Assembly (NCBI GenBank): GCA_903861045.1
Contig: CAIOST010000339.1
Location: forward strand, 1-51,451
Direction: 5' to 3'
Length of the DNA: 51,451 nucleotides
DNA from: an uncultured bacterium
GTDB taxonomy: Bacteria; Verrucomicrobiota; Kiritimatiellia; RFP12; CAIWXQ01
This document shows, in pieces, positions 983-13,205 of the stretch. Below the pieces are notes generated by a model. That model did not search any database. It was not told the DNA's origin and was given only the letters and a program-made list of their open reading frames with translations. The translations under genes were made by a program, and so were the position numbers. Each line of letters begins with the position of its first letter. Position 1 is the stretch's first letter.

Positions 983-1732
983 TTACGATGAAGGTGTTGC
1001 TGCCACCACAGTTATGTTGCGCGTGTTATCAATGCCGCCGAAGACCAGGTGATCCTTTGCCATGTTGGCCAGATCGTCTTTGCGGTTCAACCAGTCAGGC
1101 ATGGCACGGTCGAGCGCCTGCCAGAATTTAGGTCCGTGGTGCTTTTCCATCAGATGAATGAGTTCGTGCATGATGACGTAGTCTATTAACCGAACAGGCA
1201 ACTGAAGAACCCGCCAATTAAACCGAACAATTCCGTTCTTGCTGCACGATCCCCACAGAAACCCAAGATCACCAACCTCAATCTTTTCTGGTTTCCGGGC
1301 GGTATGTCGCGAGAGCCGCTCGACGCGCTGGCTAATCCATTCCGTGCCGGTCTCGAGATACCAGCGACGGAAGTGGGATTCTGCCGGACGGGCATCGCGA
1401 CGCAATGTGAACTGCGTCCCGTCGAATTGTAACGGAAGCGGTTGCTTCGACACAACCTTCAGCCTGAAACGACGCCCCAAATAGCAAAAGCCCTCGCCCG
1501 AAACATATTCCGGTGTGGTTAATCCAGGTGCCACAGATGCTTTTAGCGCCAGTTTACGATATACCCACACCAACTTATTGTTAATCCAGCGGGTGAGATC
1601 TTCGACCGATGTCGCTACGGGAACGTGCGCAACCAATTCAGCGCCACGATCCACCGTTAGCCCCAGCGTCTTGCGACGGGCGCTCCGGCGCACATCAAAT
1701 ACTAAACCATTTAGTTGGACGGTTTCGCTCAT
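983..1732 (-). CDS. YgjP-like (DUF45/M48-family) zinc metallohydrolase, translationally coupled to hsdR
   Basis: HEXXH motif in IMHELIHLMEKHHGPKFW is typical of YgjP/DUF45. Its ATG overlaps the hsdR stop (1729-1732). DUF45 genes commonly follow hsdR. Confidence 0.7.
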   Translation of the reverse strand: MSETVQLNGLVFDVRRSARRKTLGLTVDRGAELVAHVPVATSVEDLTRWINNKLVWVYRKLALKASVAPGLTTPEYVSGEGFCYLGRRFRLKVVSKQPLPLQFDGTQFTLRRDARPAESHFRRWYLETGTEWISQRVERLSRHTARKPEKIEVGDLGFLWGSCSKNGIVRFNWRVLQLPVRLIDYVIMHELIHLMEKHHGPKFWQALDRAMPDWLNRKDDLANMAKDHLVFGGIDNTRNITVVAATPSS

Positions 1733-4700
1733 GAGTTGGTCAGGTTGGAGTGGTTTTCCTTAGCAAGGGCGACGAGACGCTGGGCTAGATCGCGTTCTGT
1801 ACCGGGGCAGCAGATACCGGCGCGGTCGAGATCCCGAACTAAACTCTTGGTCAACAGTTCGCGCATGTCGTCGTTCTTCCAGAAGCCGACTTTACGCACT
1901 TCTTGACGGATGCGCTCTACCATATCCAGTGTAGTCTTAATGGACTTTTCGCGCTGATCCGCATTCTGTTCACGCCCCTTGCCACATTCTTCCAACACAA
2001 GGCGAACGAATGGTACTTGCGCCTTGGCGTCGAGATGCGGGAAATCATTCCGGTCACCCTGGCGTAACTCATCAATATACTTCTTCAGTTCCCGCTCGAG
2101 GGCGTTCCAGTCGTCTTTGAACCGCTGGAGAATCTCCTCCAAGCGCTGGCTCATCTTCCGGGCGTAGGCCGGGTTCTGATTTGAGAAGCCGATGATGTGG
2201 TAGCGGGCGGCGTGTTGCATCTGCGCAGCGCGGGCGCGGCTGCTAGTTTGGGCTTGCAACACCTTTTCAAACTCCGCGTCGGTGATGGCCGTGGGCGGAA
2301 TCTTGGGGTCAACGCCACGCGCCGAAATATGGGCGTTGATGAGCGCCTTTACTTTTTCCGCCACGCCAAATAGATTCAATGACGGGTCGCGATACAAGTT
2401 AGCGGCTACTTTGTTGATGAAGCCTAGCAGTTTGGCGTCGCGAAATACATCGTTCGGCACTTCCGGCCGGTGCTCCAGAATACCCAGCAATTCGTAAAAC
2501 ATGCGCAGTTTGTTAATGAAATCGGCACGTAGCTTCAGGTCTTCAAGCAACTGCACGCAGACATCAACCTGACTCTGCAAATCCGTGATGCCCCGGCCTG
2601 TAAATACCGCGACCGCCCGCGCTCTTCGATCGAGCAATTTGGGCAATTCGACGTTGATGTCAATCAACGCGCCAGCGGTATCATTACCATCGTAATCTTT
2701 AAGCGCGACCTCCAAATGTTGAGCCACACCGATGTAGTCCACCACATAGCCACACTTCTTCTGGCCACAGGTTCGATTCACCCGCGCAATGGCCTGCAAC
2801 AAGTCATGTGCGACGATTTTACGGTCGAGATAAAGCACCTGTTCCACAGGCGCGTCAAAGCCCGTCAGCAACATGTTCATCACAACGAGAATCGTCAGGG
2901 GATCGGTCTTGTCGGTCTTATCCGGAGAAAACTTGCGCTTGAAACGTTTGATGAGTTCCTCTTGTTTACCCTTGTCCGCCCAATCCCACCATGCCTCAGG
3001 ATCGTTATGGTTGCCGGAGAAGACGGCGGCAATCTCCAAGGCGCGAAGCTTGGGCAGTTGCTGATGGATTTGCAGCAGAAACTGCGTCTTGGCATCGAGA
3101 TTATTCGTCTCGTCATCGGTCAACCCCAGCGTGGCGGCAGGTACAGCCTCCAATTCGGAAACCAGTTCCGTCCGCGCCAGCGCAAGTTTATCGAGATAGG
3201 TCATCACCGCCTGCCGGCTCGTGGCTACGATCTGTGCCTTGAAGCCCTCGGGTAAAACCACGCTGGCGAAATGCCGGATCATATCGCGCGCCTTTTGCTC
3301 AATAAGCATAGGCGCCTCCATCACATCGCCTTCGGTCGCATACTTGGCCTTAATAACGGCTAATTCCTTCTGCGTGTATTCACAGAACATATCCTCGAAC
3401 AGGGTGTCGAGGTTGGGCGCGTCCTTGACGATCCCGTCTGCGGTCCGGCCTTCGTAGAGAATCGGCACGGTGGCGCCATCGAGTTCCGCGTCCTGGAGAA
3501 GGTATTTATCAATGTAGTCGCCGAAGATATCTTTCGTCTCCGTCTTTTCACTGTTTAGGATGGGCGTCCCGGTAAAGCCGATGATGGCAGCGTTGGGCAG
3601 CGCTTTGTGGAGGTTGCGATGCAGCGTGCGCGTGTGGGAACGATGCGCTTCGTCCACCAGTACGAGAATTTCCGGAGAATCGTTGAGTAATGGGAATTCC
3701 TCGAACCGAATATTCTCCGTGAAGGTGACGGATTTTTCGACGACTGGCTCGTTGCGGCCTGGCTTCTTCTCCTTGCGAACGATGGTCATGGCCACCTTGT
3801 CGCCGGGTTGATCGCCTGGCTCAGGCAACAGGGCCAGCGCAGCGTCATCCTGCTTGCTGCCAACGGGTTGATACTTTTGCAGCATCGCCATAATGATGTC
3901 CGGCGTGCGTTCGCTGAGCAGGCGTTGGGTCAGAGCCGTCGGTGACTCGCGCGATTTCAAATCCTCGTCTGTCGGACGAACGGCTTCCCCACTCAACTGC
4001 GCTGTCGCGCCAAGTTGGGCCTGCAAGTCCGTGCGGTCGGTCACGACGACAATCTTGAACCGGTTGAGGCGCGGCATCATCCGCATTTTACGCACAAGGA
4101 AGACCATGCTGAGGCTCTTGCCCGAACCTTGCGTGTGCCAGATGATGCCCCCGCGCTGGTCGCGCTCCGCGCCCTGCGCCTTGGTCTGGCCATCCTGTAA
4201 TCTGGCCACGGCCTTGTGAATCGCGCGAAACTGCTGGTAGCGCGCCACCACCTTGCGCGTCTTGCCGTCCACTTGCTGAAACACGGTGAAATTACGGATG
4301 AGATCGAGCAAGTGCGCCGGTCGCAACATGCCGGCGACAAGAATCTGCTGACTCTGCAACGTGGCTCCGAAACCTTCGCGTAAGACATCCGGGCGCTCTT
4401 TGCGATCCCGGAAGAATAGCGGCGTGCCTACCCGGTCGCCATGTTCCGCGCCCAATGTGGCCAATTCCTGGGCGGCTTCTGTCTCGTCCGCGGGCCGGGA
4501 CAACACCCCGAGCTCCTGCGCCACGGTGCTCAATGGCACGGGGCTGGTATCGGCCCATTCCAAATATGCCTCCGGCGGCGCGCCGATGGTCGCCGCTCGC
4601 GACTCAAAGAAATCGCTGGCGATAAGCAACTGGTTGGTATGAAACAGTTTCTCCACGCCCTCGTTCTCGGTGTAGAGCGTGGGGTATATCTCCCGGCGCT

Positions 4701-5262
4701 GGTTGCAATAGCGCAGCAGTTGGTTGATGGCCTCCTGCAACGGGTTCTCTATACCGGGACTTTTGAACTCCGCGACGGACACCGGAATGCCGTTGATGAA
4801 CAGCACCGCATCTGGAATGATGTGGCCACGCCCACTGGTTAGTTCCACCTTGAACTGGTTGATCACGAGAAAATCGTTATTGGCTGGGTTCTCGAAATCT
4901 ATAAAGCAAATGGGCTGCGGGCGGCCGCGTTCCCAGTCCGGCAGGCCTTCCGCCACCGTACCCTTGAGCAAAAGCTGGGTGGCAGCTTGATTGCTCTCCA
5001 TTAACCGGTGTCCGGCAGCCTGCTCCAGATCGCGGATGGCGCGGGCAATGCGCTCGTCATCCAGCCACGGCTGGCCGTCACGCAGGTTGAGTTTGCGAAG
5101 CGCCGCCGCGAGCCGCCCTTTGAGCAAAACCTCACGGAAGTTGGCGCGCTCAGTAAAATCGGGCACGTCCTTGTCGCCCTCAATCCACTGCCAACCCATG
5201 GCCTTGAGTTGCTCGCAGAACGGGCGCTCGGCCAGATCGTATTCCCATTGGATTTTGCTCAT
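1729..5262 (-). CDS. hsdR: Type I restriction enzyme R subunit (HsdR), 1177 aa
   Basis: SF2 helicase motifs: Walker A WHTQGSGKSLSM and DEAH box LVLVDEAHRSH. The N-terminal nuclease region and operon context with hsdM/hsdS also fit. Confidence 0.9.
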   Translation of the reverse strand: MSKIQWEYDLAERPFCEQLKAMGWQWIEGDKDVPDFTERANFREVLLKGRLAAALRKLNLRDGQPWLDDERIARAIRDLEQAAGHRLMESNQAATQLLLKGTVAEGLPDWERGRPQPICFIDFENPANNDFLVINQFKVELTSGRGHIIPDAVLFINGIPVSVAEFKSPGIENPLQEAINQLLRYCNQRREIYPTLYTENEGVEKLFHTNQLLIASDFFESRAATIGAPPEAYLEWADTSPVPLSTVAQELGVLSRPADETEAAQELATLGAEHGDRVGTPLFFRDRKERPDVLREGFGATLQSQQILVAGMLRPAHLLDLIRNFTVFQQVDGKTRKVVARYQQFRAIHKAVARLQDGQTKAQGAERDQRGGIIWHTQGSGKSLSMVFLVRKMRMMPRLNRFKIVVVTDRTDLQAQLGATAQLSGEAVRPTDEDLKSRESPTALTQRLLSERTPDIIMAMLQKYQPVGSKQDDAALALLPEPGDQPGDKVAMTIVRKEKKPGRNEPVVEKSVTFTENIRFEEFPLLNDSPEILVLVDEAHRSHTRTLHRNLHKALPNAAIIGFTGTPILNSEKTETKDIFGDYIDKYLLQDAELDGATVPILYEGRTADGIVKDAPNLDTLFEDMFCEYTQKELAVIKAKYATEGDVMEAPMLIEQKARDMIRHFASVVLPEGFKAQIVATSRQAVMTYLDKLALARTELVSELEAVPAATLGLTDDETNNLDAKTQFLLQIHQQLPKLRALEIAAVFSGNHNDPEAWWDWADKGKQEELIKRFKRKFSPDKTDKTDPLTILVVMNMLLTGFDAPVEQVLYLDRKIVAHDLLQAIARVNRTCGQKKCGYVVDYIGVAQHLEVALKDYDGNDTAGALIDINVELPKLLDRRARAVAVFTGRGITDLQSQVDVCVQLLEDLKLRADFINKLRMFYELLGILEHRPEVPNDVFRDAKLLGFINKVAANLYRDPSLNLFGVAEKVKALINAHISARGVDPKIPPTAITDAEFEKVLQAQTSSRARAAQMQHAARYHIIGFSNQNPAYARKMSQRLEEILQRFKDDWNALERELKKYIDELRQGDRNDFPHLDAKAQVPFVRLVLEECGKGREQNADQREKSIKTTLDMVERIRQEVRKVGFWKNDDMRELLTKSLVRDLDRAGICCPGTERDLAQRLVALAKENHSNLTNS

Positions 5263-6743
5263 GGAACTTTGCGGCCTTTGCTTTGCAACCGTTTTCCAAC
5301 CGCTGTGAGTCTGTAGCTCTGTCGGCTACTTTGCGGTTTGGCAGGAATGGTGCGTTCCAACCAGCCGCCCTCCAGCGCAGGGGCTAAATAGTTCCGTCGG
5401 AAATGCTCACGGTCAGCAAGCTTCAGCCTGGCCTGCAACTTCTCCCTGGACAGCTCCCCCTCAACCACTCGAACGAGCGACTCTACTTCCGGGGTGACTT
5501 CCGGGGTAACTTCCGGGGTGACTTGCGGGGTGACTTGCGGGCTGACTTGCGGGGTGACTTGCGGGGTGACTTGCGGGGTCCGAAAGGTCAGCGTCACCCC
5601 CCGTTCCGCCGTCGAAATCCAAACCGGATCGGGCAGCCCTTGTTTCCGGCACGCCTCCATGATCAGAAAACTCCCCCGTCCCAGTTTCTCCATGAAGCCG
5701 CGCAGGTAGAGCACATGGGCAATGTCGGGGTTGCGCAGGACGGAAAGGTGCCCTTGATGCAACAACGTATCCGGCGTGATGCCCGCCGGAAAGGCTCCGG
5801 AATTCCAGATTTCCAAACGCGTCGGATAGACGTGCACGGCGACTCCGCCCGAGTGCTCGGCGTAATCCCGATGGGCAAAGGCATTGATCAAACCCTCGCG
5901 AATGGCCTCTTCCGGATAGACGCAGGCGTCCTGCCGTTGCGGCTTCTCCTTCGAGAACCGCGCCAGTGTGGGTGTGTTGCGGAGAATGAAAGCGAACAAC
6001 TGGTTGAAGACCGGCATCAGCGGCCCGTCAAAGCTCTTCATGTCCGTAAACTGGTCGCTCGCCTTGTCGTGACTGAACGCCGCAGCCCGCACTCGCACCT
6101 GCGGGAAAACACGCCCCGGTTCGTTGGCAAAAAGCACCACCCCGCCCTGCGTCAACCGGCCAAACTGGGCCAGAGACAGGTCATCCAAAACCGTTTGGGT
6201 GTCGTTCGCATTGCGAAACTGGAACGGCCGGGCCTTCCGGATATCTGCCACGGTCGTCTGCACCTCGACGGTCTCGACATCCGACCCCGTGCCACACGTG
6301 GAGAGGCGTCGCTCCCATCGTTCCGGTTCGGCAGACTTCCGCAACACCATTTCACGGATTTCTGCTGCCCCAGCTTTATGGGTGGCGCTCCCTTCGCGTA
6401 GATAGACCACATCCTCGAAGGCGTATGGCACATCTTTGCCGGCAGGCGCCTCGATCAATACCAGTGCCACACCATCAACCTGCTGCACGCCCACCCACAC
6501 CAGCGCTTTAGGCGAAAGCCTTTCGATCAGCAGTTGCTCCACCCGCCGGGCTTCAGATTCGGCATCCGTAACGCCCACGAGTTTTCCGTTGTCGCCAACA
6601 CCGCAAACCAATGTGCCACCGCCCGCATTCAGAAATCCGCACACCACGCCGCCAATGGCCTTGGGGTTGCCCACGCCAGTCTTGAACTCCACGGCCTGCC
6701 CCTCACCGAGACGAAGCACCTCCCGCAACTTCTCCGCTTTCAC
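5259..6743 (-). CDS. COG2865-type protein: N-terminal AlbA_2/Schlafen-like domain + HATPase_c_4-like domain + TPQV repeat linker + C-terminal wHTH
   Basis: N-terminus GEGQAVEFKTG...GFLNAGGGTLVCGVGDNGKLVGV has the AlbA_2 pattern. EEAIREGLINAFAHRDY...RLEIWNSG has the HATPase_c_4 pattern. It carries 8 tandem TPQV/TPEV repeats. It shares a 4-nt overlap with both neighbours. Confidence 0.7.
   Translation of the reverse strand: MKAEKLREVLRLGEGQAVEFKTGVGNPKAIGGVVCGFLNAGGGTLVCGVGDNGKLVGVTDAESEARRVEQLLIERLSPKALVWVGVQQVDGVALVLIEAPAGKDVPYAFEDVVYLREGSATHKAGAAEIREMVLRKSAEPERWERRLSTCGTGSDVETVEVQTTVADIRKARPFQFRNANDTQTVLDDLSLAQFGRLTQGGVVLFANEPGRVFPQVRVRAAAFSHDKASDQFTDMKSFDGPLMPVFNQLFAFILRNTPTLARFSKEKPQRQDACVYPEEAIREGLINAFAHRDYAEHSGGVAVHVYPTRLEIWNSGAFPAGITPDTLLHQGHLSVLRNPDIAHVLYLRGFMEKLGRGSFLIMEACRKQGLPDPVWISTAERGVTLTFRTPQVTPQVTPQVSPQVTPQVTPEVTPEVTPEVESLVRVVEGELSREKLQARLKLADREHFRRNYLAPALEGGWLERTIPAKPQSSRQSYRLTAVGKRLQSKGRKVP
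5486..5580. repeat. In-frame tandem 12-nt repeat x ~8 (encodes TPQV/TPEV linker) inside the COG2865 gene
   Basis: Plus strand reads cttccggggtga / cttccggggtaa / cttccggggtga / cttgcggggtga ... The unit is a multiple of 3, so copy-number change keeps the frame. Confidence 0.8.
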
Positions 6744-7390
6744 GGTTGGCCTCCCTTCGGGTTGGCAATCACTTTGGACACTTTGACCGGATCGGCGAAG
6801 CTCTCCTTCACAAACGCCTCGACCTCCTGATAGCGGAAGAACTGGGCCGTGGCAAACAATGCCGCATCCTCCGGCTCCTGATATTGCTGCACCCAGTTCC
6901 CCTGCCGCTCGCGTAACGGCCTGTCCGAAAGGATCGCGTCTTCATACATGTCAATCACGCGCAGATCGTCAAGCATGGGCGTCTTCTTCAGGCTCAACCC
7001 CTGCCGCGCCTTCCGATCCGCATAGCCGAGATTCTTCAACAACGCACGCGCAAAGACCACATGGTCATGCGCCAGCACCCAGCGCGGCTTCTTCAACGCG
7101 ACGGCCTTGCGCAACTCCTGATGCGTAATGGAAAGCGCCCCCGGTCGATCCTCCTTGCCGCTGCCATAATTCGGCGTGACCAACCCCAGGAACAAATCGC
7201 ACTTCTCCACCGCCACCAGGCAATTCTCGAACGCCGACCGGTTCGAAAACACCGGCATGGTCCCCTTGTGCGACATCCAGACTTCGTACCCATAGGCCGT
7301 CAGCAACGTGTACAAACGGTTCAGCAACTCCTCGATGCCATAGACCGAGGAGGAGACCATGATGACCAGCTTGTCTCGTTTCGCACTCAT
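6740..7390 (-). CDS. DUF4062-like domain protein (216 aa from Met at 7390; alternative start 7480 gives 246 aa and a 20-nt overlap with the upstream gene)
   Basis: KLVIMVSSSVYGIEELLNRL...CDLFLGLVTPNYGSG...SITHQELRKAVALKKPRWVLAH matches the remembered DUF4062 consensus (vFiSSTf.DL..eR...gRYGs..giSyTe.Ey..A...gkp.l.fl). Its stop overlaps the COG2865 start. Confidence 0.55.
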   Translation of the reverse strand: MSAKRDKLVIMVSSSVYGIEELLNRLYTLLTAYGYEVWMSHKGTMPVFSNRSAFENCLVAVEKCDLFLGLVTPNYGSGKEDRPGALSITHQELRKAVALKKPRWVLAHDHVVFARALLKNLGYADRKARQGLSLKKTPMLDDLRVIDMYEDAILSDRPLRERQGNWVQQYQEPEDAALFATAQFFRYQEVEAFVKESFADPVKVSKVIANPKGGQP

Positions 7391-7460
7391 GGGAGTAGAT
7401 CCGTTCCAGGAGCAAGTGTGGCAAAGTGGCGTTTTGTGGTAAAGCTTATCCGCACGAGAA

Positions 7461-9320
7461 TCACGCCTCTTTCCCCTCATTGGCGTTAATCAACTGACCG
7501 AGATGAAAACCCTTCCAGCAAAGATGCACAATCAACCACCAAAGATAGACGGAAGATGCCTGGTAAAAACCACCTTCCGGCAGGAGGCCATGGGCAGATT
7601 CGTTTCGCAAATTATGCCCGAACCTCTCGATCAATAGACCGCGCAAGTCAAACAGGATGTTAGCACCAATGATTCTTTCGACATCCGGGATCCATAGCAA
7701 TTGGTTCAAGTCACGTTCCTGTTGTGTGCCATCCGAATCCAGCGTTGAGGTAATGATCCCATATTGATTCAACACATGTCGAATGGATGCTTCAACCTGC
7801 GGAATCAGCAAATGGAGCGCGGTTAACCAGTCGCCAAAGAACCCGGCCTGGATGCCGCGCAGATAAATCCCCTCGTGCCCTGGCGGAATGAAAGGGTTGT
7901 TTGTCACGAAGAAGATTAAGTCGCGATGACGAATCACGTGTTCGTCGACTATTGCGTAACGCGCAGGTTCGATATACCATACCGCATGCATGGGCCAGTT
8001 GAGCGTTCGCGCCTGTTGGCAAAGTCGCTTACGCAAGGCCTCCTTTTCCTCTTCTGGATTACCAACGCCTGCGGCAGGAACCGTGTCAGCGACTTTTCCA
8101 TCGTGGTCGATAGATGAAGCACCGGCAATTTTATCGAAGATGGTATTCTTGGTAGCTTCTTGGTGCTGCTGTTGAAGTTTCTCGACATCTGTAGGCTGTG
8201 TGACATTGGCAAACCGTACGAGTGCCGTCTGAAAATCATGCCCACGAACATGGGCAGCCGAACGTTCCTGCGTCACCCTTTCAGCTTCAACAAACTCAGG
8301 ATTCGACAAACTGTCAATCTTGATTGTAGTCAACTCTGACAGGCTTTGCTTCTGCAGTGCAAGGAACCGCCGATGAACGGTTTTGATGCGTTCAGGATTG
8401 GCCTTGGCGCGTCGCAAGGCTTCAACACCCCGACCAACCCAATAAGATGCAAACATGGCACCTTGTGTCGCCAGTCCCTCTTCACCACGGGAAACATTGC
8501 ACTCAGCAGCAGCCAATAGACATGCCTGCGCTTCGGTCTCCTTCTTGGCTACTCGATGCCACTGTTCCGCAAGTAGCCAATACGCCTCCGCAACATGCCA
8601 GTCTTCAGCATCCGCAAACCGCTTGGCCAAACGCTCGGACAATGCCGCGTAATGAACTGCGTCTCCCTCCTTAAGGCCCAACAGTGCCAACATGAGATGA
8701 TGGCAAAGCAACCCTGCCTTTGTGTTGTTCTCATATTCAACGATCGCGGCCTCTAAAGCAGCAACCACCGTTTTTCGTTCCGTTTCGAAACCGCGAATAG
8801 CGGAAATTTGCGCCGCGCGCTCCAAACGTTCAACGTAGGGAGGCCAGAGATCGTCAGTCTTAAGACGCTCGGATGCTTGCAGAAAAGCCAAGATGGCAAT
8901 ACGAGCAGCCTTGAAGTCCTTCTTGGTCACCCAGAGTACATCGGCAACACGTGCACGAAATTCCGGGTCTTGAATCTCTTCCACGATCCCGCTAAGTGCG
9001 GCAAGATCGTCTTCGCACAAATCCTCCGCATTCAGCGTCCTCTTGCCGTTGAAACCGCTCCACATCGAGCCGTATGGATTTCCTCGAATATCGTAATTCG
9101 GGTAGAACGAGGCAACGACGTTGAGAAATGAAAAGACGCGAAACCCCAGGTCGTCTTTCGCGGTCGTACATTCCCTCGCTGCGGCAGTAAAGCCTTCACA
9201 GAGCCCGTAACACTCTTTGTTCTTTGCCTGCCACACCCGAGACTGCCAATCGCTTCGACGCAGATCGTCTGCCGTTACGCCAAAACTGGATTGTTTCGTT
9301 TCGCCCATGTCAAACAACAC
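7461..9320 (-). CDS. 619-aa protein with C-terminal HEPN-type motif (Rx4HG; NLR...HG as in DUF4209); N-terminal ~500 aa unassigned
   Basis: C-terminus reads ...RFGHNLRNESAHGLLPEGG... It overlaps the hsdS stop by 11 nt. Codon usage and composition are typical of real genes here. Confidence 0.55.
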   Translation of the reverse strand: MLFDMGETKQSSFGVTADDLRRSDWQSRVWQAKNKECYGLCEGFTAAARECTTAKDDLGFRVFSFLNVVASFYPNYDIRGNPYGSMWSGFNGKRTLNAEDLCEDDLAALSGIVEEIQDPEFRARVADVLWVTKKDFKAARIAILAFLQASERLKTDDLWPPYVERLERAAQISAIRGFETERKTVVAALEAAIVEYENNTKAGLLCHHLMLALLGLKEGDAVHYAALSERLAKRFADAEDWHVAEAYWLLAEQWHRVAKKETEAQACLLAAAECNVSRGEEGLATQGAMFASYWVGRGVEALRRAKANPERIKTVHRRFLALQKQSLSELTTIKIDSLSNPEFVEAERVTQERSAAHVRGHDFQTALVRFANVTQPTDVEKLQQQHQEATKNTIFDKIAGASSIDHDGKVADTVPAAGVGNPEEEKEALRKRLCQQARTLNWPMHAVWYIEPARYAIVDEHVIRHRDLIFFVTNNPFIPPGHEGIYLRGIQAGFFGDWLTALHLLIPQVEASIRHVLNQYGIITSTLDSDGTQQERDLNQLLWIPDVERIIGANILFDLRGLLIERFGHNLRNESAHGLLPEGGFYQASSVYLWWLIVHLCWKGFHLGQLINANEGKEA

Positions 9321-10548
9321 CTTCCGGCACCCTCACACGACCGGTGAGCAGGTCGGTCATCAGGCCGGATTTCAGTTGTTGGAGCTTCCTTAACTCAACC
9401 TCTTCCGACGCAATCGTAGCTTCAGAAGCGAGCATAGCGTTGGCCGCCGTTCGTTGCTCCTCGCTTGGCGGAACTGCAATCTTTAGTCTTTTGAAATACG
9501 GGAGACCAATCGTCTTGATGGTGCTGCCCATCGCAATCGCCTCAAACTGCGGCTTGTTGTGCTGAAGCCAGTAATACAGAAAGAGGTTGTACAGCCGTTT
9601 TCCGCACCGCCACGCCATGAAATGCTGACTGACCGCCATTTCCTCGGCGAGTATCGCACTCTTCCCGATTCCAGCATCACGGGACAGAATGACAGTTCCG
9701 GCCGAGTGCTTCACGGCTGACGAGTTCTCGATTCCGAGTTCGCTGATTTGCTTGTCAGTCTCTGAGATGTAAATGCGGTCGAGTTTGTCTGAGTCAGCCA
9801 ACGACACCCACTTGATGCCCCCATCCCAACAAGAGGGGACATCTTTAGTCGGCGTATGGCCGCTGCCACGGAGGGCGACATCGTCTAAAAGACAAATATC
9901 CCAGTCCTTCGGGAGTTGGCCGAGGGGGGAGTCTTGGAATTGTTCGGGGTGGGCGATGGGGTCGCGGAGTTGGCCGTTGTGGTCGAGGCCGCGGGTGAGG
10001 AGATCGTGGAGCAGGCCGGCGCGCACCTGCCGCAACTTCGCAATCACGGCCTCCGTCTTCGCAATCGCGTCGTCTACCGTGTCCAGAACGGTGGCGATGC
10101 GGGATTGCTCGATTTCTGAAGAAGGTTTGAAAACCCAATGACGTTTCAAGTCGTTCCAGGACGTGCGCGGCATCTTGGTACCAACCCCGGTTGCCGACGC
10201 AGCGGCAAATACGCGCTCCCATTGAAAAACATGGGCGGCATATTGTGGAAGGACACCGTTGCGAGCTCGTAGCACAAGGATATCTGTTGAGCAGTAACCA
10301 GAGAACGGGGCTTTCAGGCTTTTTCGAAGATTTGGTCGGAGTTTGCCAAACAGAATGTCGTCCTTGGAAAAGCAGGAGTTTATGCTGACCGAAGCACTGC
10401 TGGGCAAAGAACCCAGCAAGTGGGGTTGGCCTTGCGCAATGTGCTCAAGTCCGATGTAACGGAGACTCGGGTCTTTGTTGCTTGCAACCTTTTCTGGTCG
10501 CAGTTCAACCAGTGCATCGAGACCGACTGTGGGAGGGCACGCACTCAT
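9310..10548 (-). CDS. hsdS: Type I R-M specificity subunit (HsdS), two target-recognition domains
   Basis: 412 aa with a bipartite repeat structure and conserved central and C-terminal helices (…LRQVRAGLLHDLLTRG…, …LQQLKSGLMTDLLTGRV). Its ATG overlaps the hsdM stop. Confidence 0.85.
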   Translation of the reverse strand: MSACPPTVGLDALVELRPEKVASNKDPSLRYIGLEHIAQGQPHLLGSLPSSASVSINSCFSKDDILFGKLRPNLRKSLKAPFSGYCSTDILVLRARNGVLPQYAAHVFQWERVFAAASATGVGTKMPRTSWNDLKRHWVFKPSSEIEQSRIATVLDTVDDAIAKTEAVIAKLRQVRAGLLHDLLTRGLDHNGQLRDPIAHPEQFQDSPLGQLPKDWDICLLDDVALRGSGHTPTKDVPSCWDGGIKWVSLADSDKLDRIYISETDKQISELGIENSSAVKHSAGTVILSRDAGIGKSAILAEEMAVSQHFMAWRCGKRLYNLFLYYWLQHNKPQFEAIAMGSTIKTIGLPYFKRLKIAVPPSEEQRTAANAMLASEATIASEEVELRKLQQLKSGLMTDLLTGRVRVPEGVV

Positions 10549-13205
10549 CTGTAGGACAATGCCTCCAAGAAAGTCTCCAGATTAGATTCAGCACTTGCAC
10601 GTTCTGAGCGCAGAGCAGTCAACGTCACCCGATACTTGTCCCAAAGACCCTCAATGTAACGCACCAACTCGTGCCGTTTCTCGGCCACGGCGGCGTCGAG
10701 GCCGACCTGCACATCCTGCGCGAAGAGTTCGAGGACGAGGTCGCGTTTCTCGGTGTCGTCGAATCCGGTACAGCGCAGTTTGAGTTCGTTCACAAACTCC
10801 GCGGTGAGCGTGCGGAAAAGGGCGCGGGCTTCGGCGAGTTGTTCCTTGATCGTTTCGTGGGGGACGAGGGCCATTTCGAATGCGGCCAGTTGATCGAGGA
10901 TCGGCTGGAGTTTGCGCTTTAACTCGTTTGACGTGGCAACGGGTTTGCGGACGGCGCGGAGCGCCGTCCCTACCTTTCGTTCCCGCTCCTGTTTGGAAAG
11001 CTCCTTGAGATCGGCCTTGTGCTCGGCCTTGAGTTCGCGGATCTGCCGCTCGATATCTTTGGGGTAGTTCCAGTTCTCCAATTCCTCCTCGTCGAGGTCG
11101 TCGGGCACGTTGCTCTGCTCGAAGGCTTCCTTCTCGCCCTTGAGCCGGGCGATGTCGGACTTGGCGGCGGCGATGCGTTCCAGATAGTCGGTCATGGTGC
11201 GACGGACGAGCTTGTGCGCGAAGGGGTCGAGCACCGGGCCGGCGGCTTCGTCGTCTTCCACGGCGTCGGCGATGGCGTCCACCCAGCCGTCTATGACGCC
11301 AGGGAAGCCGTTTTCGAGCAGGGTCTTGAAGTCAGGGAGCGTGTCGGTCCACCAGGTGGCGATGACGCCGGCGAGTTTGAAGCGATCGAGGGTGTTCAAG
11401 GGCAGCAGCGCGGCGACAAAGGTTTCGAGGAACTCGGCGCGAACCTTGTTGAGCTTGCGATGTTCGGGCAGTTTGGCCAGACGCGGGGAGTGTTCTGCCC
11501 ACCACTGTCCCAGGTGTTGGCGCACGGTCGCAAGGGTCTTTTGAACCCCGGGATCGCTTTCGACCAGCGGGCGGATGGCGGCGCGTTCCGGGAGCGCGGG
11601 GGCGAAGTCGTAGTAGAGCGTGTCGCCTGTGCGCTTGGCGAAGGCGTGGGAAGGCTTGAAGCCGAGGGCGTCGAACAACGCACGGTTGTCCGTCACCTCA
11701 GCCACGGGCACGCCGCCAAGTAGGTGGGCGCGCACGTCGTGCGGCTCTGGTGGTGGGGAGTTGTCCACGTAGCGGCGGATGTTAAGATTGAAATCGTTGG
11801 CTTCGCTGGCGATTTCGGTGAGGGGGACAACGCGGGCGTAGCCGGGGATATCCTGATAGTTATCGAAGGTGGAGACAACCTTTTCGACGTGCTCCGGGCG
11901 GAGGTAGTTTTGCGCGCGGCCAGCATGGAACTCGGCGTCCGCATTGATGAACAGCACCTTGCCCCGACGTTCGGCGGGCTTTTTCGCGTTAGGTGCGTGA
12001 CCGGTGAGGTTGGGGCGCATGATGAGAATACACGCCGGAATGCCCGCGCCGTAGAACAGATTCTGGGGCAAGCCGATGACGGCCTCGATGAGGTCCTGTT
12101 CGAGGAACTTTCTGCGGATCTCCTTTTCCGCCCCGCCGCGAAAGAGCACGCCGTGAGGCATGACCGTGGCAACCATGCCGCCTGGCTTACAGACGGCAAG
12201 CATGTGCTGGGCGAACATGAGGTCGCCCTTCTTGCCGGAGGTTGGACACCAGCCCCAGCGGAAACGCTCGGGAAACTCCATGTTGTTGCGCGTGTAGTTC
12301 TGGCTGAAAGGCGGATTGGCGATGACACGGTCGAATCGTTCCAGTTCGCCAGCATCCTTATGCAGCGGGTGCAGCAAAGTGTCCTGAAGTTGAATATCTG
12401 CGCCGGTGACGCCGTGCAGGAGCATATTCAATTTACAGATGGACCAAGCCGAGGCGTCGTTAACCTGGCCGCAGAGGCGAAGGTTGGTGGGGTCGCCACC
12501 GGATTGCTCGATGAACTCGCGGCTGATGATAAGCATGCCGCCCGAACCGCAGGTGGGGTCATAGACAGATAGGCCGGGCGCGGGTTTGAGGATACGCACC
12601 ATGAGACGGATGACATCGCGCGGCGTGTAGAAATCTCCACCCTTTTTGCCCGCCGACTCGGCGAAATTGTTGATGAGGAACTCGTAGGCCGCGCCCAGCA
12701 GGTCGGAGAACTGAAAATCCTCATTGCGCAGCCTGTAGCGGCTAAAGATACGGCTGACCAGGTCTTTGCAACAGTCGTCCGAAACGATGCGTTTGCCGCT
12801 CTCGACGGCCATGAAGAAGATACGATCGAGGACATGCTCCAACTGCGGGTTGGATTCGCGGAGCGCCGCGAGCGCTTTGTCAAGGACCGAGCCATACACT
12901 ACGTTGGCGTCGCCTAGTTTGTCCTTGAGGTAACCCCATCGAGCGCAATCGGGGACAAAGAAACCATCGTAGTAATCAGGATTTTCGCCGTACTGTTTCT
13001 CCGCTGCATCTTTCACCATGCCTTGTTCGACCTTCCGGCCGACAATATTCTCGCGTTCGGCCTCAAAGACGTCCGAACACCGCTTCAGGAAAAGCATGCC
13101 GAAGATGTAATCCTTGTAAGTGGCCGCATCGAGTCCCTCCTGGCGAAGTCGGTCAGCAGCCGACATGAGATGTCGTTCGAGTTTGGCGAGGGAAAGGCGT
13201 GGCAT
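10545..13205 (-). CDS. hsdM: Type I R-M N6-adenine DNA methyltransferase subunit (HsdM), unusually long (886 aa) with ~350-aa C-terminal coiled-coil extension
   Basis: HsdM_N-like start (ERHLMSAADRLR...YKDYIFGMLFLKRCSDVFE), SAM motif DPTCGSGGML and catalytic NPPF (IANPPFSQ). Confidence 0.88.
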   Translation of the reverse strand: MPRLSLAKLERHLMSAADRLRQEGLDAATYKDYIFGMLFLKRCSDVFEAERENIVGRKVEQGMVKDAAEKQYGENPDYYDGFFVPDCARWGYLKDKLGDANVVYGSVLDKALAALRESNPQLEHVLDRIFFMAVESGKRIVSDDCCKDLVSRIFSRYRLRNEDFQFSDLLGAAYEFLINNFAESAGKKGGDFYTPRDVIRLMVRILKPAPGLSVYDPTCGSGGMLIISREFIEQSGGDPTNLRLCGQVNDASAWSICKLNMLLHGVTGADIQLQDTLLHPLHKDAGELERFDRVIANPPFSQNYTRNNMEFPERFRWGWCPTSGKKGDLMFAQHMLAVCKPGGMVATVMPHGVLFRGGAEKEIRRKFLEQDLIEAVIGLPQNLFYGAGIPACILIMRPNLTGHAPNAKKPAERRGKVLFINADAEFHAGRAQNYLRPEHVEKVVSTFDNYQDIPGYARVVPLTEIASEANDFNLNIRRYVDNSPPPEPHDVRAHLLGGVPVAEVTDNRALFDALGFKPSHAFAKRTGDTLYYDFAPALPERAAIRPLVESDPGVQKTLATVRQHLGQWWAEHSPRLAKLPEHRKLNKVRAEFLETFVAALLPLNTLDRFKLAGVIATWWTDTLPDFKTLLENGFPGVIDGWVDAIADAVEDDEAAGPVLDPFAHKLVRRTMTDYLERIAAAKSDIARLKGEKEAFEQSNVPDDLDEEELENWNYPKDIERQIRELKAEHKADLKELSKQERERKVGTALRAVRKPVATSNELKRKLQPILDQLAAFEMALVPHETIKEQLAEARALFRTLTAEFVNELKLRCTGFDDTEKRDLVLELFAQDVQVGLDAAVAEKRHELVRYIEGLWDKYRVTLTALRSERASAESNLETFLEALSYR

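Follow-up and report, generated by a model that had tools for sequence, protein, structure and literature searches.

The DUF4062 gene of the window (the whole 51,451-nt stretch of DNA analysed) and the Schlafen-GHKL gene directly downstream form an obligate, translationally coupled pair, in which the DUF4062 gene comes first. The original prediction described a stand-alone gene, but all related loci examined tie it to the COG2865-type gene downstream. The DUF4062 protein is predicted to be a TIR-like NAD+ hydrolase of the DUF4062/NIR family. Our analysis makes it reasonably probable that the pair is an abortive-infection module, in which the Schlafen-ATPase would sense infection, oligomerise and switch on the NADase. 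No description of a DUF4062-Schlafen/GHKL module was found in the literature searched.

Gene, start codon and predicted active site

The DUF4062 gene and its upstream surroundings are as follows.

6740..7390, minus strand: DUF4062/NIR gene, 216 codons plus stop; a TIR-like NADase-type domain, then a conserved helical C-terminal region
7115..7117, minus strand: codon of the predicted catalytic glutamate, which is Glu92 of the S-I-T-H-Q-E motif (E122 in a 246-aa protein)
7391..7480, minus strand: spurious 30-codon N-terminal extension, absent from all homologues
7391-7460, minus strand: non-coding spacer of 70 nt, after the stop of the upstream gene (7463-7461)
7461..9320, minus strand: upstream neighbour, DUF7380 and DUF4209 with a HEPN-type RNESAHG motif (Pfam); PADLOC candidate PDC-S39, E 9.5e-160

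The longest version of the open reading frame is ATG-initiated and has 246 codons (7480..6740, minus strand). Its translation includes the residues from which a DUF4062 protein was predicted, and the Pfam search confirmed that assignment: PF13271 matches residues 40-126 (246-aa numbering; E 7.1e-15; 55.4 bits, where the gathering score is 24.7) and spans profile positions 2-82 of 82. It is the sole Pfam domain found in the 216-aa protein, which has the alpha/beta fold of the TIR and nucleoside-deoxyribosyltransferase-like proteins. The AlphaFold model is moderate (mean pLDDT 64.7; residues 136-185 below 50), so it does not reveal the C-terminal region or any interface. No PADLOC 2.0 model matches the DUF4062 protein.

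The start had been called ambiguous between ATG 7480 and the in-frame Met31 codon at 7390-7388. The aligned homologues and the public gene calls settle this: the start codon is ATG 7390, and the deduced product has 216 aa. The homologues all have about 200-225 aa and begin at the position of this Met; the best 120 database matches all have 202-223 aa. The 30-residue extension is unique to the window, with no counterpart in 22 aligned homologues. ATG 7480 gives the longest reading frame, and since the upstream gene ends with TGA at 7463-7461, it would produce the predicted 20-nt overlap, a possible geometry for translational coupling to the HEPN-type gene. However, the extra residues lack counterparts, the gene callers select 7390, and the HEPN gene is missing from all related loci. 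A 246-aa protein coupled to the HEPN-type gene is hardly credible. With the start at 7390 the overlap is replaced by the spacer. As had been noted for Met 7390, there is no obvious Shine-Dalgarno sequence; neither ATG is preceded by an AGGAGG-like motif at a distance of 5-12 nt. The RNA structure of the spacer is unremarkable (z -0.10), and it has no excess of promoter- and terminator-like sites over shuffles.

The earlier view of DUF4062 as a module of unknown function has been superseded. Three preprints of 2026 (bioRxiv 10.64898/2026.05.01.722283, 10.64898/2026.06.25.731849, 10.64898/2026.09.04.749371) establish DUF4062 ("NIR") as a TIR-like NADase that uses a catalytic Glu and acts in phage defence. 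The catalytic residues are E97 in KpSwz, E108 in PsAvs2, E98 in Vulcan, E103 in VstA, and E87 in Eva01. KpSwz, PsAvs2, Vulcan, Vesta, and Eva01 combine NADase activity or NAD+ depletion with defence; for TEP1, NADase activity only is reported. E92 of the window protein is invariant in 73/73 aligned relatives, and aligns with the Eva01 E87 (S-Y-T-E-M-E-Y). Its spacing from the N-terminus fits the catalytic Glu positions of the family only with the start at 7390. The substrate is predicted to be NAD+; all six experimentally tested DUF4062 domains deplete or hydrolyse it. An N-glycosidase acting on another nucleotide is unlikely, for example a CMP/dNMP hydrolase or a deoxyribosyltransferase for phage-modified or methylated nucleotides.

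The proteins of methanogens and Verrucomicrobia share 60-76% identity across all 216 residues. Such conservation of the family is unusual, and makes it tractable for biochemistry and structure determination. For annotation, the gain is a corrected start at 7390 and a functional name for the DUF4062 gene.

Pairing with the Schlafen-GHKL gene

The partner gene and its junction with the DUF4062 gene are as follows.

5259..6743, minus strand: partner gene, 494 aa; Schlafen AlbA_2, GHKL ATPase (HATPase_c_4) and Fic-like_C winged helix, the "Schlatpase"-HTH architecture
6681..6704, minus strand: Schlafen catalytic motif E14-x4-E19-x-K21 (GEGQAVEFK) in the translation; motif definition from PMC13056530
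6740..6743, minus strand: GTGA overlap, in which the DUF4062 stop (6742-6740) overlaps the partner GTG start (6743-6741); translational-coupling geometry

The DUF4062-pattern gene had been placed immediately upstream of a Schlafen-like gene, and the stop/start overlap agrees with this. GGGAGG lies 7 nt ahead of the partner GTG start. The Pfam domains of the partner are clear (AlbA_2 1.9e-17, HATPase_c_4 1.5e-15, Fic-like_C 2.5e-23). It has the features of a Schlatpase (pSlfn-HisKinase-HTH): AlbA_2 with Ex4(E/D)xK is joined to a GHKL domain (PF13749) and, at the C-terminus, to an HTH. The GHKL motifs (E283, N287, HRDY, GRG) are invariant in 61/61 homologues, and the Ex4ExK motif is largely kept (E14 in 58/61, E19 in 60/61, K21 in 48/61). 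The partner thus appears to be an intact enzyme.

A Schlafen(AlbA_2)-GHKL homologue lies directly downstream, in fixed order, in 79/79 assessable related loci from many phyla of Bacteria and Archaea, with a 4-nt stop/start overlap in 60 of 74. The pair is retained at 33-37% identity, and moves as a unit, also into non-defence neighbourhoods. It is present on two plasmids. Among 140 plasmids with Schlafen-ATPase homologues, a DUF4062-protein homologue (E <= 1e-3) is detectable only on two, which carry the two best-scoring matches. The pairwise distances of the two proteins are correlated (Spearman 0.56; in a Mantel test 0/2000 permutations reach the observed value). A search for fusions to neighbouring proteins, suggested as a Rosetta-stone check, was positive: natural DUF4062-AlbA_2-HATPase_c_4 fusions of 640 aa occur, in three variants spread over at least 4 contigs. 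A duplicated DUF4062 form is coupled to a Schlafen-GHKL-NACHT-FGE-sulfatase protein. The original prediction had named HEPN and COG2865 genes as the expected neighbours. The COG2865-type link holds; the HEPN link is not conserved, with no homologue of the HEPN neighbour in 80 related loci (0/80), which indicates a separate insertion outside the conserved module.

A DUF4062 protein of the Evangelion/Swarozyc type and a pSlfn could also come to lie side by side in a defence island as two independent single-gene systems. Autonomous single-gene systems are known in both families, and three different accessory genes are stacked in the window operon. This reading is very improbable, since it is disfavoured by the invariable adjacency in fixed order, the 4-nt overlaps, the fusions and the correlated divergence. 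The movement of the pair as a unit into non-defence neighbourhoods and the plasmid distribution also count against it.

Translational coupling and co-inheritance are typical of toxin-antitoxin pairs as well. One protein might restrain the other, for example the Schlafen-ATPase/wHTH neutralising the NADase, or the reverse; the restrained protein would then be freed once its inhibitor is degraded or titrated, instead of being switched on by ATP-driven assembly. On Deinococcus pRadio3, the gene that precedes a homologous Schlafen-ATPase gene, again with a 4-nt overlap, is long and antitoxin-like (HigA/Peptidase_M78). However, catalytic and ATP-binding residues are near-invariant in both proteins, and a partner that only inhibits would not be expected to keep them so. 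A single-polypeptide fusion is also unusual where toxin-antitoxin pairs rely on differential stability. We regard such an arrangement as quite improbable.

Proposed mechanism and its relation to signalling systems

In the favoured abortive-infection module, the DUF4062 protein and the Schlafen-ATPase protein would assemble as a complex. Infection would be sensed by the Schlafen-ATPase protein, through its nucleic-acid-binding domains, or through NACHT and a C-terminal sensor in relatives. ATP binding might drive its oligomerisation, which would gather the TIR-like domains and turn on NAD+ hydrolysis, probably together with tRNA cleavage by the Schlafen domain. The infected cell would then cease growth. 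By its sequence, the 216-aa protein lacks its own sensor domain: it stops at residue 216, and the portal-binding AUX of KpSwz extends at least to W238/Y239.

ATP-driven assembly has a precedent. In SLFN-pAgo, tetramers form as a result of ATP binding to a homologous GHKL domain, and tRNA is cut by the SLFN domain (bioRxiv 10.64898/2026.05.29.728809). The window partner shares with SLFN-pAgo and pSlfn-HisKinase-HTH the AlbA_2, HATPase_c_4 and C-terminal HTH domains, a combination more common than any other among prokaryotic Schlafens. The partner retains the Ex4ExK and the invariant GHKL motifs, and is often found within type I R-M loci. The Schlatpase papers describe single-polypeptide systems with a fused sensor that controls the Schlafen nuclease, and SLFN-pAgos have no conserved gene partner. 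In contrast, the present proteins form a distinct clade with an obligate upstream gene for a TIR-like enzyme, a second catalytic activity. Seven Schlafen systems, including HisKinase-type fusions, have been tested, and the only two that defended were the DUF262- and Ig-like fusions (PMC13056530); this counts against the proposed module. The HisKinase-type systems in that study may have been tested without a DUF4062 partner. If the pair indeed works as a two-enzyme system, some stand-alone Schlafen-HisKinase genes may be negative in defence assays because the partner is missing.

The two-gene operon also resembles Thoeris (ThsB TIR and ThsA effector), which combines a small TIR-type protein, a larger effector, and NAD+ chemistry. 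By analogy, the DUF4062 protein would sense infection and turn NAD+ into a diffusible signal; the Schlafen-ATPase would bind it, for example in the GHKL nucleotide pocket, and unleash tRNA cleavage. The TIR-like fold and conserved Glu suit this scheme, and with its conserved nuclease motif the partner could be the sole effector. Ligand-activated Schlafens exist, such as Cash, which is activated by cA4 (PMC13462974). However, the TIR protein of Thoeris makes its signal for a SLOG or Macro domain, and in the partner Pfam detected neither of these, nor a SAVED or CARF-type ligand domain. The DUF4062 enzymes characterised so far all yield ADPR and nicotinamide or deplete NAD+, with no signal reported, and an evident sensor domain is missing from the 216-aa protein. 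The fusions suggest a physical complex, unlike in Thoeris; together with the start/stop coupling they point to a stoichiometric complex and disfavour a diffusible amplifying signal. Thoeris-like signalling is therefore improbable.

It was only in 2025-2026 that DUF4062/NIR NADases, and likewise prokaryotic Schlafen nucleases, came to be known as immune effectors; both have human counterparts (TEP1 and SLFN11, respectively). A conserved operon with occasional fusion would define a new architecture in which one ATP-dependent switch controls two effectors, and would also give a testable role to the Schlafen-GHKL-HTH proteins.

Restriction-modification context and related systems

The remaining genes of the operon are as follows.

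13205..10545, minus strand: hsdM (Pfam N6_Mtase, E 5.8e-94)
10548..9310, minus strand: hsdS (Pfam Methylase_S, E 1.4e-24)
5262..1729, minus strand: hsdR (Pfam HSDR_N, SWI2_SNF2, T1R_D3-like)
1732..983, minus strand: YgjP-like metallopeptidase gene (Pfam YgjP-like), which closes the operon with hsdR

The R-M operon context that had been predicted is correct. The gene lies between hsdM/hsdS (13205..9310) and hsdR (5262..1729) in a type I R-M operon with the order hsdM-hsdS-HEPN-DUF4062-Schlafen-hsdR. Among the loci with at least 3 kb on both sides, 21/39 carry type I R-M genes that run in the same direction; in 22/73 loci, the gene immediately upstream is hsdM. The pair forms a mobile cassette, which in about half of the loci, including the window, sits inside a type I R-M operon. 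There it may take over once restriction has been defeated. R-M genes are missing from about half of the loci, which excludes R-M guarding as a general mechanism.

PrrC and RloC (EcoprrI, work of the Kaufmann laboratory) provide a precedent for such nesting. The tRNA-targeting suicide anticodon nuclease is encoded between hsd genes and co-transcribed with them, and PrrC has an ABC-ATPase-like N-domain. Nucleases of the PrrC type are kept latent by binding to HsdMSR, and anti-restriction factors activate them. The window pair likewise lies within a type I hsd operon and is read in the same direction, and a back-up on defeat of restriction is plausible. However, the proteins are unrelated, PrrC is not known to have a NADase partner, and with about half of the cassettes lacking R-M neighbours, dependence on HsdMSR is not general, unlike for PrrC. 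A wider proposal is possible but tentative: the pair may represent an unnamed two-enzyme abortive-infection system that is widespread in Bacteria and Archaea. A GHKL-ATPase/Schlafen scaffold would license a trans-acting TIR-like NADase, tRNA cleavage and NAD+ depletion would act together, and the system would recur as a PrrC-like fail-safe in type I R-M operons. This would extend the PrrC paradigm of suicide modules nested in such operons.

The known DUF4062/NIR systems (Swarozyc, Evangelion, Vulcan, Vesta, and NIR-Avs2) share with the 216-aa protein the Pfam domain in N-terminal position, the TIR/NDT-like fold, and the catalytic Glu in S-x-T-x-x-E. Defence-island and R-M context is also common to them, as is a patchy distribution consistent with horizontal spread. 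The pair differs from each of them. Swarozyc is a single gene with a C-terminal portal-binding AUX (hairpin W238/Y239); by this description it is set apart from a protein that ends at 216 and has an obligate partner. Evangelion is also a single gene, with a DUF4062 core and AUX; BLASTP to pMW2 Eva01 (324 aa) gave 21% identity over 103 residues (E 0.33), and the AUX or C-terminal part is not alignable. Vesta pairs a small NIR protein with the alkaline phosphatase VstB, whereas the downstream gene in the window and in 79/79 loci encodes Schlafen-GHKL-wHTH. The Schlafen-GHKL partner is not mentioned in the text of the three DUF4062/NIR preprints or in one supplement; the figures may depict the pairing. 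The NIR domain shares its polypeptide with HEAT repeats in Vulcan and with a STAND NTPase plus repeats in NIR-Avs, in contrast to the single PF13271 domain here. One relative does pair in trans with a Schlafen-GHKL-NACHT protein.

Operon organization and start of the DUF4062 gene

Pfam and PADLOC scans of the window identified an operon of seven genes, all co-directional on the minus strand:

13205..10545, minus strand: hsdM (Pfam/PADLOC)
10548..9310, minus strand: hsdS (Pfam/PADLOC)
9320..7461, minus strand: DUF7380 + DUF4209 protein with a HEPN-type RNESAHG motif (PADLOC candidate PDC-S39, E 9.5e-160)
7480/7390..6740, minus strand: DUF4062 gene (Pfam PF13271)
6743..5259, minus strand: SLFN_AlbA_2 + HATPase_c_4 + Fic-like_C protein, the Schlafen-ATPase (Pfam)
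5262..1729, minus strand: hsdR (Pfam/PADLOC)
1732..983, minus strand: YgjP-like metallopeptidase (Pfam/PADLOC)

The residues on which the DUF4062 call was originally based are present in the translation of 7480..6740, and PF13271 matches residues 40-126 of this 246-codon ORF (E 7.1e-15; 55.4 bits against a gathering score of 24.7). The setting in an R-M operon was also described correctly. The hsdM and hsdS genes lie upstream and hsdR downstream, and the gene adjoins the Schlafen-like gene through a GTGA stop/start overlap. The hsdM gene (10545-13205) is unusually long (886 aa; the PADLOC MTase_I model matched over the full length), and the YgjP-like gene (983-1732) overlaps the end of hsdR. 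This R-M family appears to include both genes, since the related locus L031 carries the same set.

The start had been left ambiguous between 7480, which would give a 20-nt overlap with the upstream gene, and the in-frame Met31 codon at 7390. The absence of an obvious Shine-Dalgarno motif was confirmed; none was found at either position, so the two starts are not discriminated by this signal. A search of 5.8 billion proteins yielded 1758 relatives; the best 120 have lengths of 202-223 aa and account for only 79-88% of the 246-aa query. When 23 sequences were aligned, all homologues started at Met31 or a few residues from it, and residues 1-30 of the long ORF had no counterpart. The identical gene is annotated as 216 aa in public assemblies. 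With the start at 7390, the predicted catalytic glutamate is residue 92 (Glu92), in register with E87, E97, E98, and E103 of characterised DUF4062 proteins. The gene is therefore assigned to 7390..6740, which settles the ambiguity. This start leaves a 70-nt spacer (7391-7460), in which RNA structure is not unusual (z -0.10) and no promoter or terminator signals were found above shuffled controls.

Pairing with the Schlafen-ATPase gene

The DUF4062 and Schlafen-ATPase genes form an obligate gene pair. In 79 of 80 related loci, the next gene downstream, in the same orientation, is a Schlafen-ATPase homologue, and in the eightieth the sequence stops 77 nt past the DUF4062 gene; the description as a stand-alone gene thus does not hold. 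The 4-nt stop/start overlap of the window recurs in 60 of the 74 loci with both ORFs callable, and 10 more have a 1-11 nt overlap or abutting ORFs. The pairing is retained in relatives only 33-37% identical to the window protein. The pair lies between hsdS and hsdM in locus L094 and beside uvrA in locus L095. Only 2 of 72,556 plasmids encode a detectable homologue of the DUF4062 protein (E <= 1e-3), namely a Hymenobacter plasmid and A. baumannii pC9_4, and each has the pair; NCBI labels the partner on pC9_4 "Fic family protein". The pairwise identities of one protein correlate with those of the other (Spearman 0.56; 0 of 2000 Mantel permutations reach the observed value). The two genes also occur as a natural 640-aa DUF4062-AlbA_2-HATPase_c_4 fusion, the Rosetta-stone evidence that the original prediction had proposed to look for, with three sequence variants on at least 4 contigs in a metabolic neighbourhood. 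The alternative that two autonomous systems are merely adjacent is strongly disfavoured.

Several variants of the arrangement were observed. The fusion at L087 5598-7520, whose variants come from independent assemblies, has no R-M genes nearby, and its Schlafen motif SESIEFLK departs from Ex4ExK. On the 8.9-kb plasmid pC9_4 (L086 1984-3025), a 166-aa hypothetical gene extends 8 nt into the start of a shortened DUF4062 gene (182 aa), and the Schlafen-ATPase gene follows, with a weak AlbA_2 match (E 0.0025); this may be a three-gene variant. There are also DUF4062 proteins duplicated in tandem, one of which precedes a 1245-aa Schlafen-GHKL-NACHT-FGE-sulfatase protein with a 4-nt overlap. In L091 5001-9970 (also in the loci L092 and L093), the duplicated protein has 411 aa and its first copy is degenerate. 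The NLR-like NACHT variant suggests that the DUF4062 unit is functional as a dimer.

Association with R-M genes was counted in the 39 loci flanked on both sides by at least 3 kb of sequence. Co-directional type I R-M genes are present in 21 of these, and hsdM together with hsdS or hsdR in 17. The immediate upstream gene is hsdM in 22 of 73 loci, and the immediate downstream gene is hsdS in 9 of 61; the usual order is hsdM-DUF4062-Schlafen-hsdS-...-hsdR. In the remaining loci the flanking genes are unrelated (for example isocitrate dehydrogenase, glnE, and uvrA). It follows that the pair is a self-contained cassette that strongly, though not exclusively, favours type I R-M operons. A link to the HEPN-type gene (7461-9320), also considered originally, was rejected, as homologues of this neighbour occur in 0 of the 80 loci. 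Its absence from all 80 indicates an independent insertion between hsdS and the DUF4062-Schlafen pair. The RNESAHG motif of this DUF7380 + DUF4209/EMARD_N protein is a HEPN-type Rx4H motif. In L031 (hsdR 79% identical, same R-M family), the HEPN slot is filled by an unannotated 126-aa ORF.

On sequence comparison, the DUF4062 subfamily of the window is distinct and tightly conserved. Its members are 60-76% identical along the entire protein, including the ~110 residues past the Pfam domain, where the motifs RQGNWVQKF and FATAQFSRYQEVEAF are conserved. An exhaustive HMMER search retrieved 541 cluster representatives at E <= 1e-3, of which 84 reach E <= 1e-30, and a survey of 185,579 species genomes counted 221 copies. 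The bacterial hosts include Verrucomicrobiota, Lentisphaerota, Desulfobacterota, Spirochaetota, Chlorobiaceae, various Proteobacteria, Bacillota, and candidate phyla; the archaeal hosts include Methanomicrobiales and Methanothrix. The phage collection gave no match and IMG/VR only one contig, and on these results a phage-borne cassette was no longer considered.

Relationship to known DUF4062 systems

The earlier view of DUF4062 as a domain of unknown function is outdated. DUF4062, also named NIR, is a TIR-like, NAD+-hydrolysing domain that has a catalytic Glu and acts in abortive-infection defence (bioRxiv 10.64898/2026.05.01.722283, 10.64898/2026.06.25.731849, 10.64898/2026.09.04.749371). These 2026 preprints describe Swarozyc, which is activated by the phage portal; Evangelion, which is carried on a plasmid; and the further defence systems NIR-Avs2, Vulcan, and Vesta. 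The DUF4062 domain of human TEP1 is likewise active. In the window protein, E92 of the S-I-T-H-Q-E motif is invariant in 73 of 73 relatives, and aligns with the catalytic E87 of the Evangelion protein Eva01. PDB sequence searches gave only chance-level matches (best E 0.16 for the protein and 0.26 for a 45-sequence profile), and the structure of the Swarozyc protein KpSwz was not recovered. Among fold matches, MilB and NDT scored as well as TIR, the reason for considering an alternative in which the substrate is a nucleotide other than NAD+.

The window protein belongs to the DUF4062/NIR superfamily, outside all named systems; Swarozyc, Vulcan, and Vesta were set apart by architecture alone. 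Evangelion membership was ruled out, with only 21% identity to Eva01 in the core and an unalignable C-terminal part. The portal-binding AUX domain of KpSwz makes its contacts through W238 and Y239, and the window protein is too short to contain it. Vulcan and Avs2 have HEAT repeats and a STAND module, respectively, and neither was found by Pfam in the window protein. The C-terminal 110 residues have no confident fold in the AlphaFold model. PADLOC and NCBIfam scans of the protein gave no match; therefore, no existing system name applies.

As immune effectors, both enzymes are already known. What appears to be undescribed is their obligate coupling, together with the fusions and the embedding in R-M operons, although a figure in the DUF4062 preprints could still show such an operon (e.g. 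Fig. S1G, Swarozyc). Schlafen, AlbA, and SLFN are not mentioned in the text of these preprints, and Schlafen, AlbA, and HATPase are all absent from the one supplementary file searched. Among the papers searched that join Schlafen, NADase, and phage (reviews, pAgo/SPARTA, and Schlafen papers), no title or abstract describes such a pair. In the same literature, the term "Schlatpase" occurs in one preprint, bioRxiv 10.64898/2026.05.29.728809, which reports SLFN-pAgos without a conserved gene partner.

Proposed mechanism and the partner protein

The DUF4062 protein and the Schlafen-ATPase may form a physical complex. This is suggested because a 216-aa TIR-like protein without a sensor domain is co-translated with the Schlafen-ATPase, because the N-terminal fusion resembles that of NIR on the STAND NTPase in Avs2, and because DUF4062 stays when the partner gains NACHT and a C-terminal sensor. 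The Schlafen-ATPase would be the infection sensor and would oligomerise on ATP; in the oligomer the TIR-like domains would come together as an active NADase, tRNA cleavage would probably accompany this activity, and the outcome would be abortive infection. Two other arrangements of the pair were considered: a Thoeris-like one, in which one gene encodes the signal producer and the other the effector, and a toxin-antitoxin-like inhibitory pair. PrrC is a fail-safe inside the type I R-M operon of EcoprrI. The two-gene module may serve as a similar PrrC-like fail-safe in type I R-M operons.

The Schlafen catalytic motif (defined in PMC13056530) is represented in the partner by E14-x4-E19-x-K21, kept in 58, 60, and 48 of 61 homologues, respectively. 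The GHKL motifs E283, N287, HRDY, and GRG are invariant (61/61). "Schlatpase"-HTH is the commonest prokaryotic Schlafen architecture (PMC13056530; bioRxiv 10.64898/2026.05.29.728809). SLFN-pAgo tetramerises when its homologous GHKL domain binds ATP, and this assembly forms the active tRNase (bioRxiv 10.64898/2026.05.29.728809). Seven Schlafen systems, HisKinase-type fusions among them, have been tested (PMC13056530); only the DUF262- and Ig-like fusions defended, neither of which is HisKinase-type.

Schlafen-ATPase homologues occur on 140 plasmids, and the two with a linked DUF4062 gene are precisely those that score highest. Unpaired examples also exist, and a specific Schlafen-ATPase clade has therefore acquired the DUF4062 partner. 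Two unpaired Schlafen-GHKL-wHTH genes also lie inside type I R-M operons. In Synechococcus elongatus pIITB7_2 (L089), the gene is directly between hsdS and hsdR. In Deinococcus radiophilus pRadio3 (L088), it lies in a type I R-M operon behind RelE and a long HigA/Peptidase_M78 gene, which is joined by the same 4-nt overlap, and hsdR follows. Both are labelled "Fic family protein" by NCBI because of the Fic-like_C domain, and the label is misleading. In the window, a 12-nt tandem repeat (5485-5579; 7.9 copies, 93% match) encodes a (TPQV/TPEV)n linker from the GHKL domain to the C-terminal winged helix of the Schlafen-ATPase. This stretch is occupied by residues in just 9-22 of 61 homologues; thus, the linker is a lineage-specific, possibly length-variable expansion.
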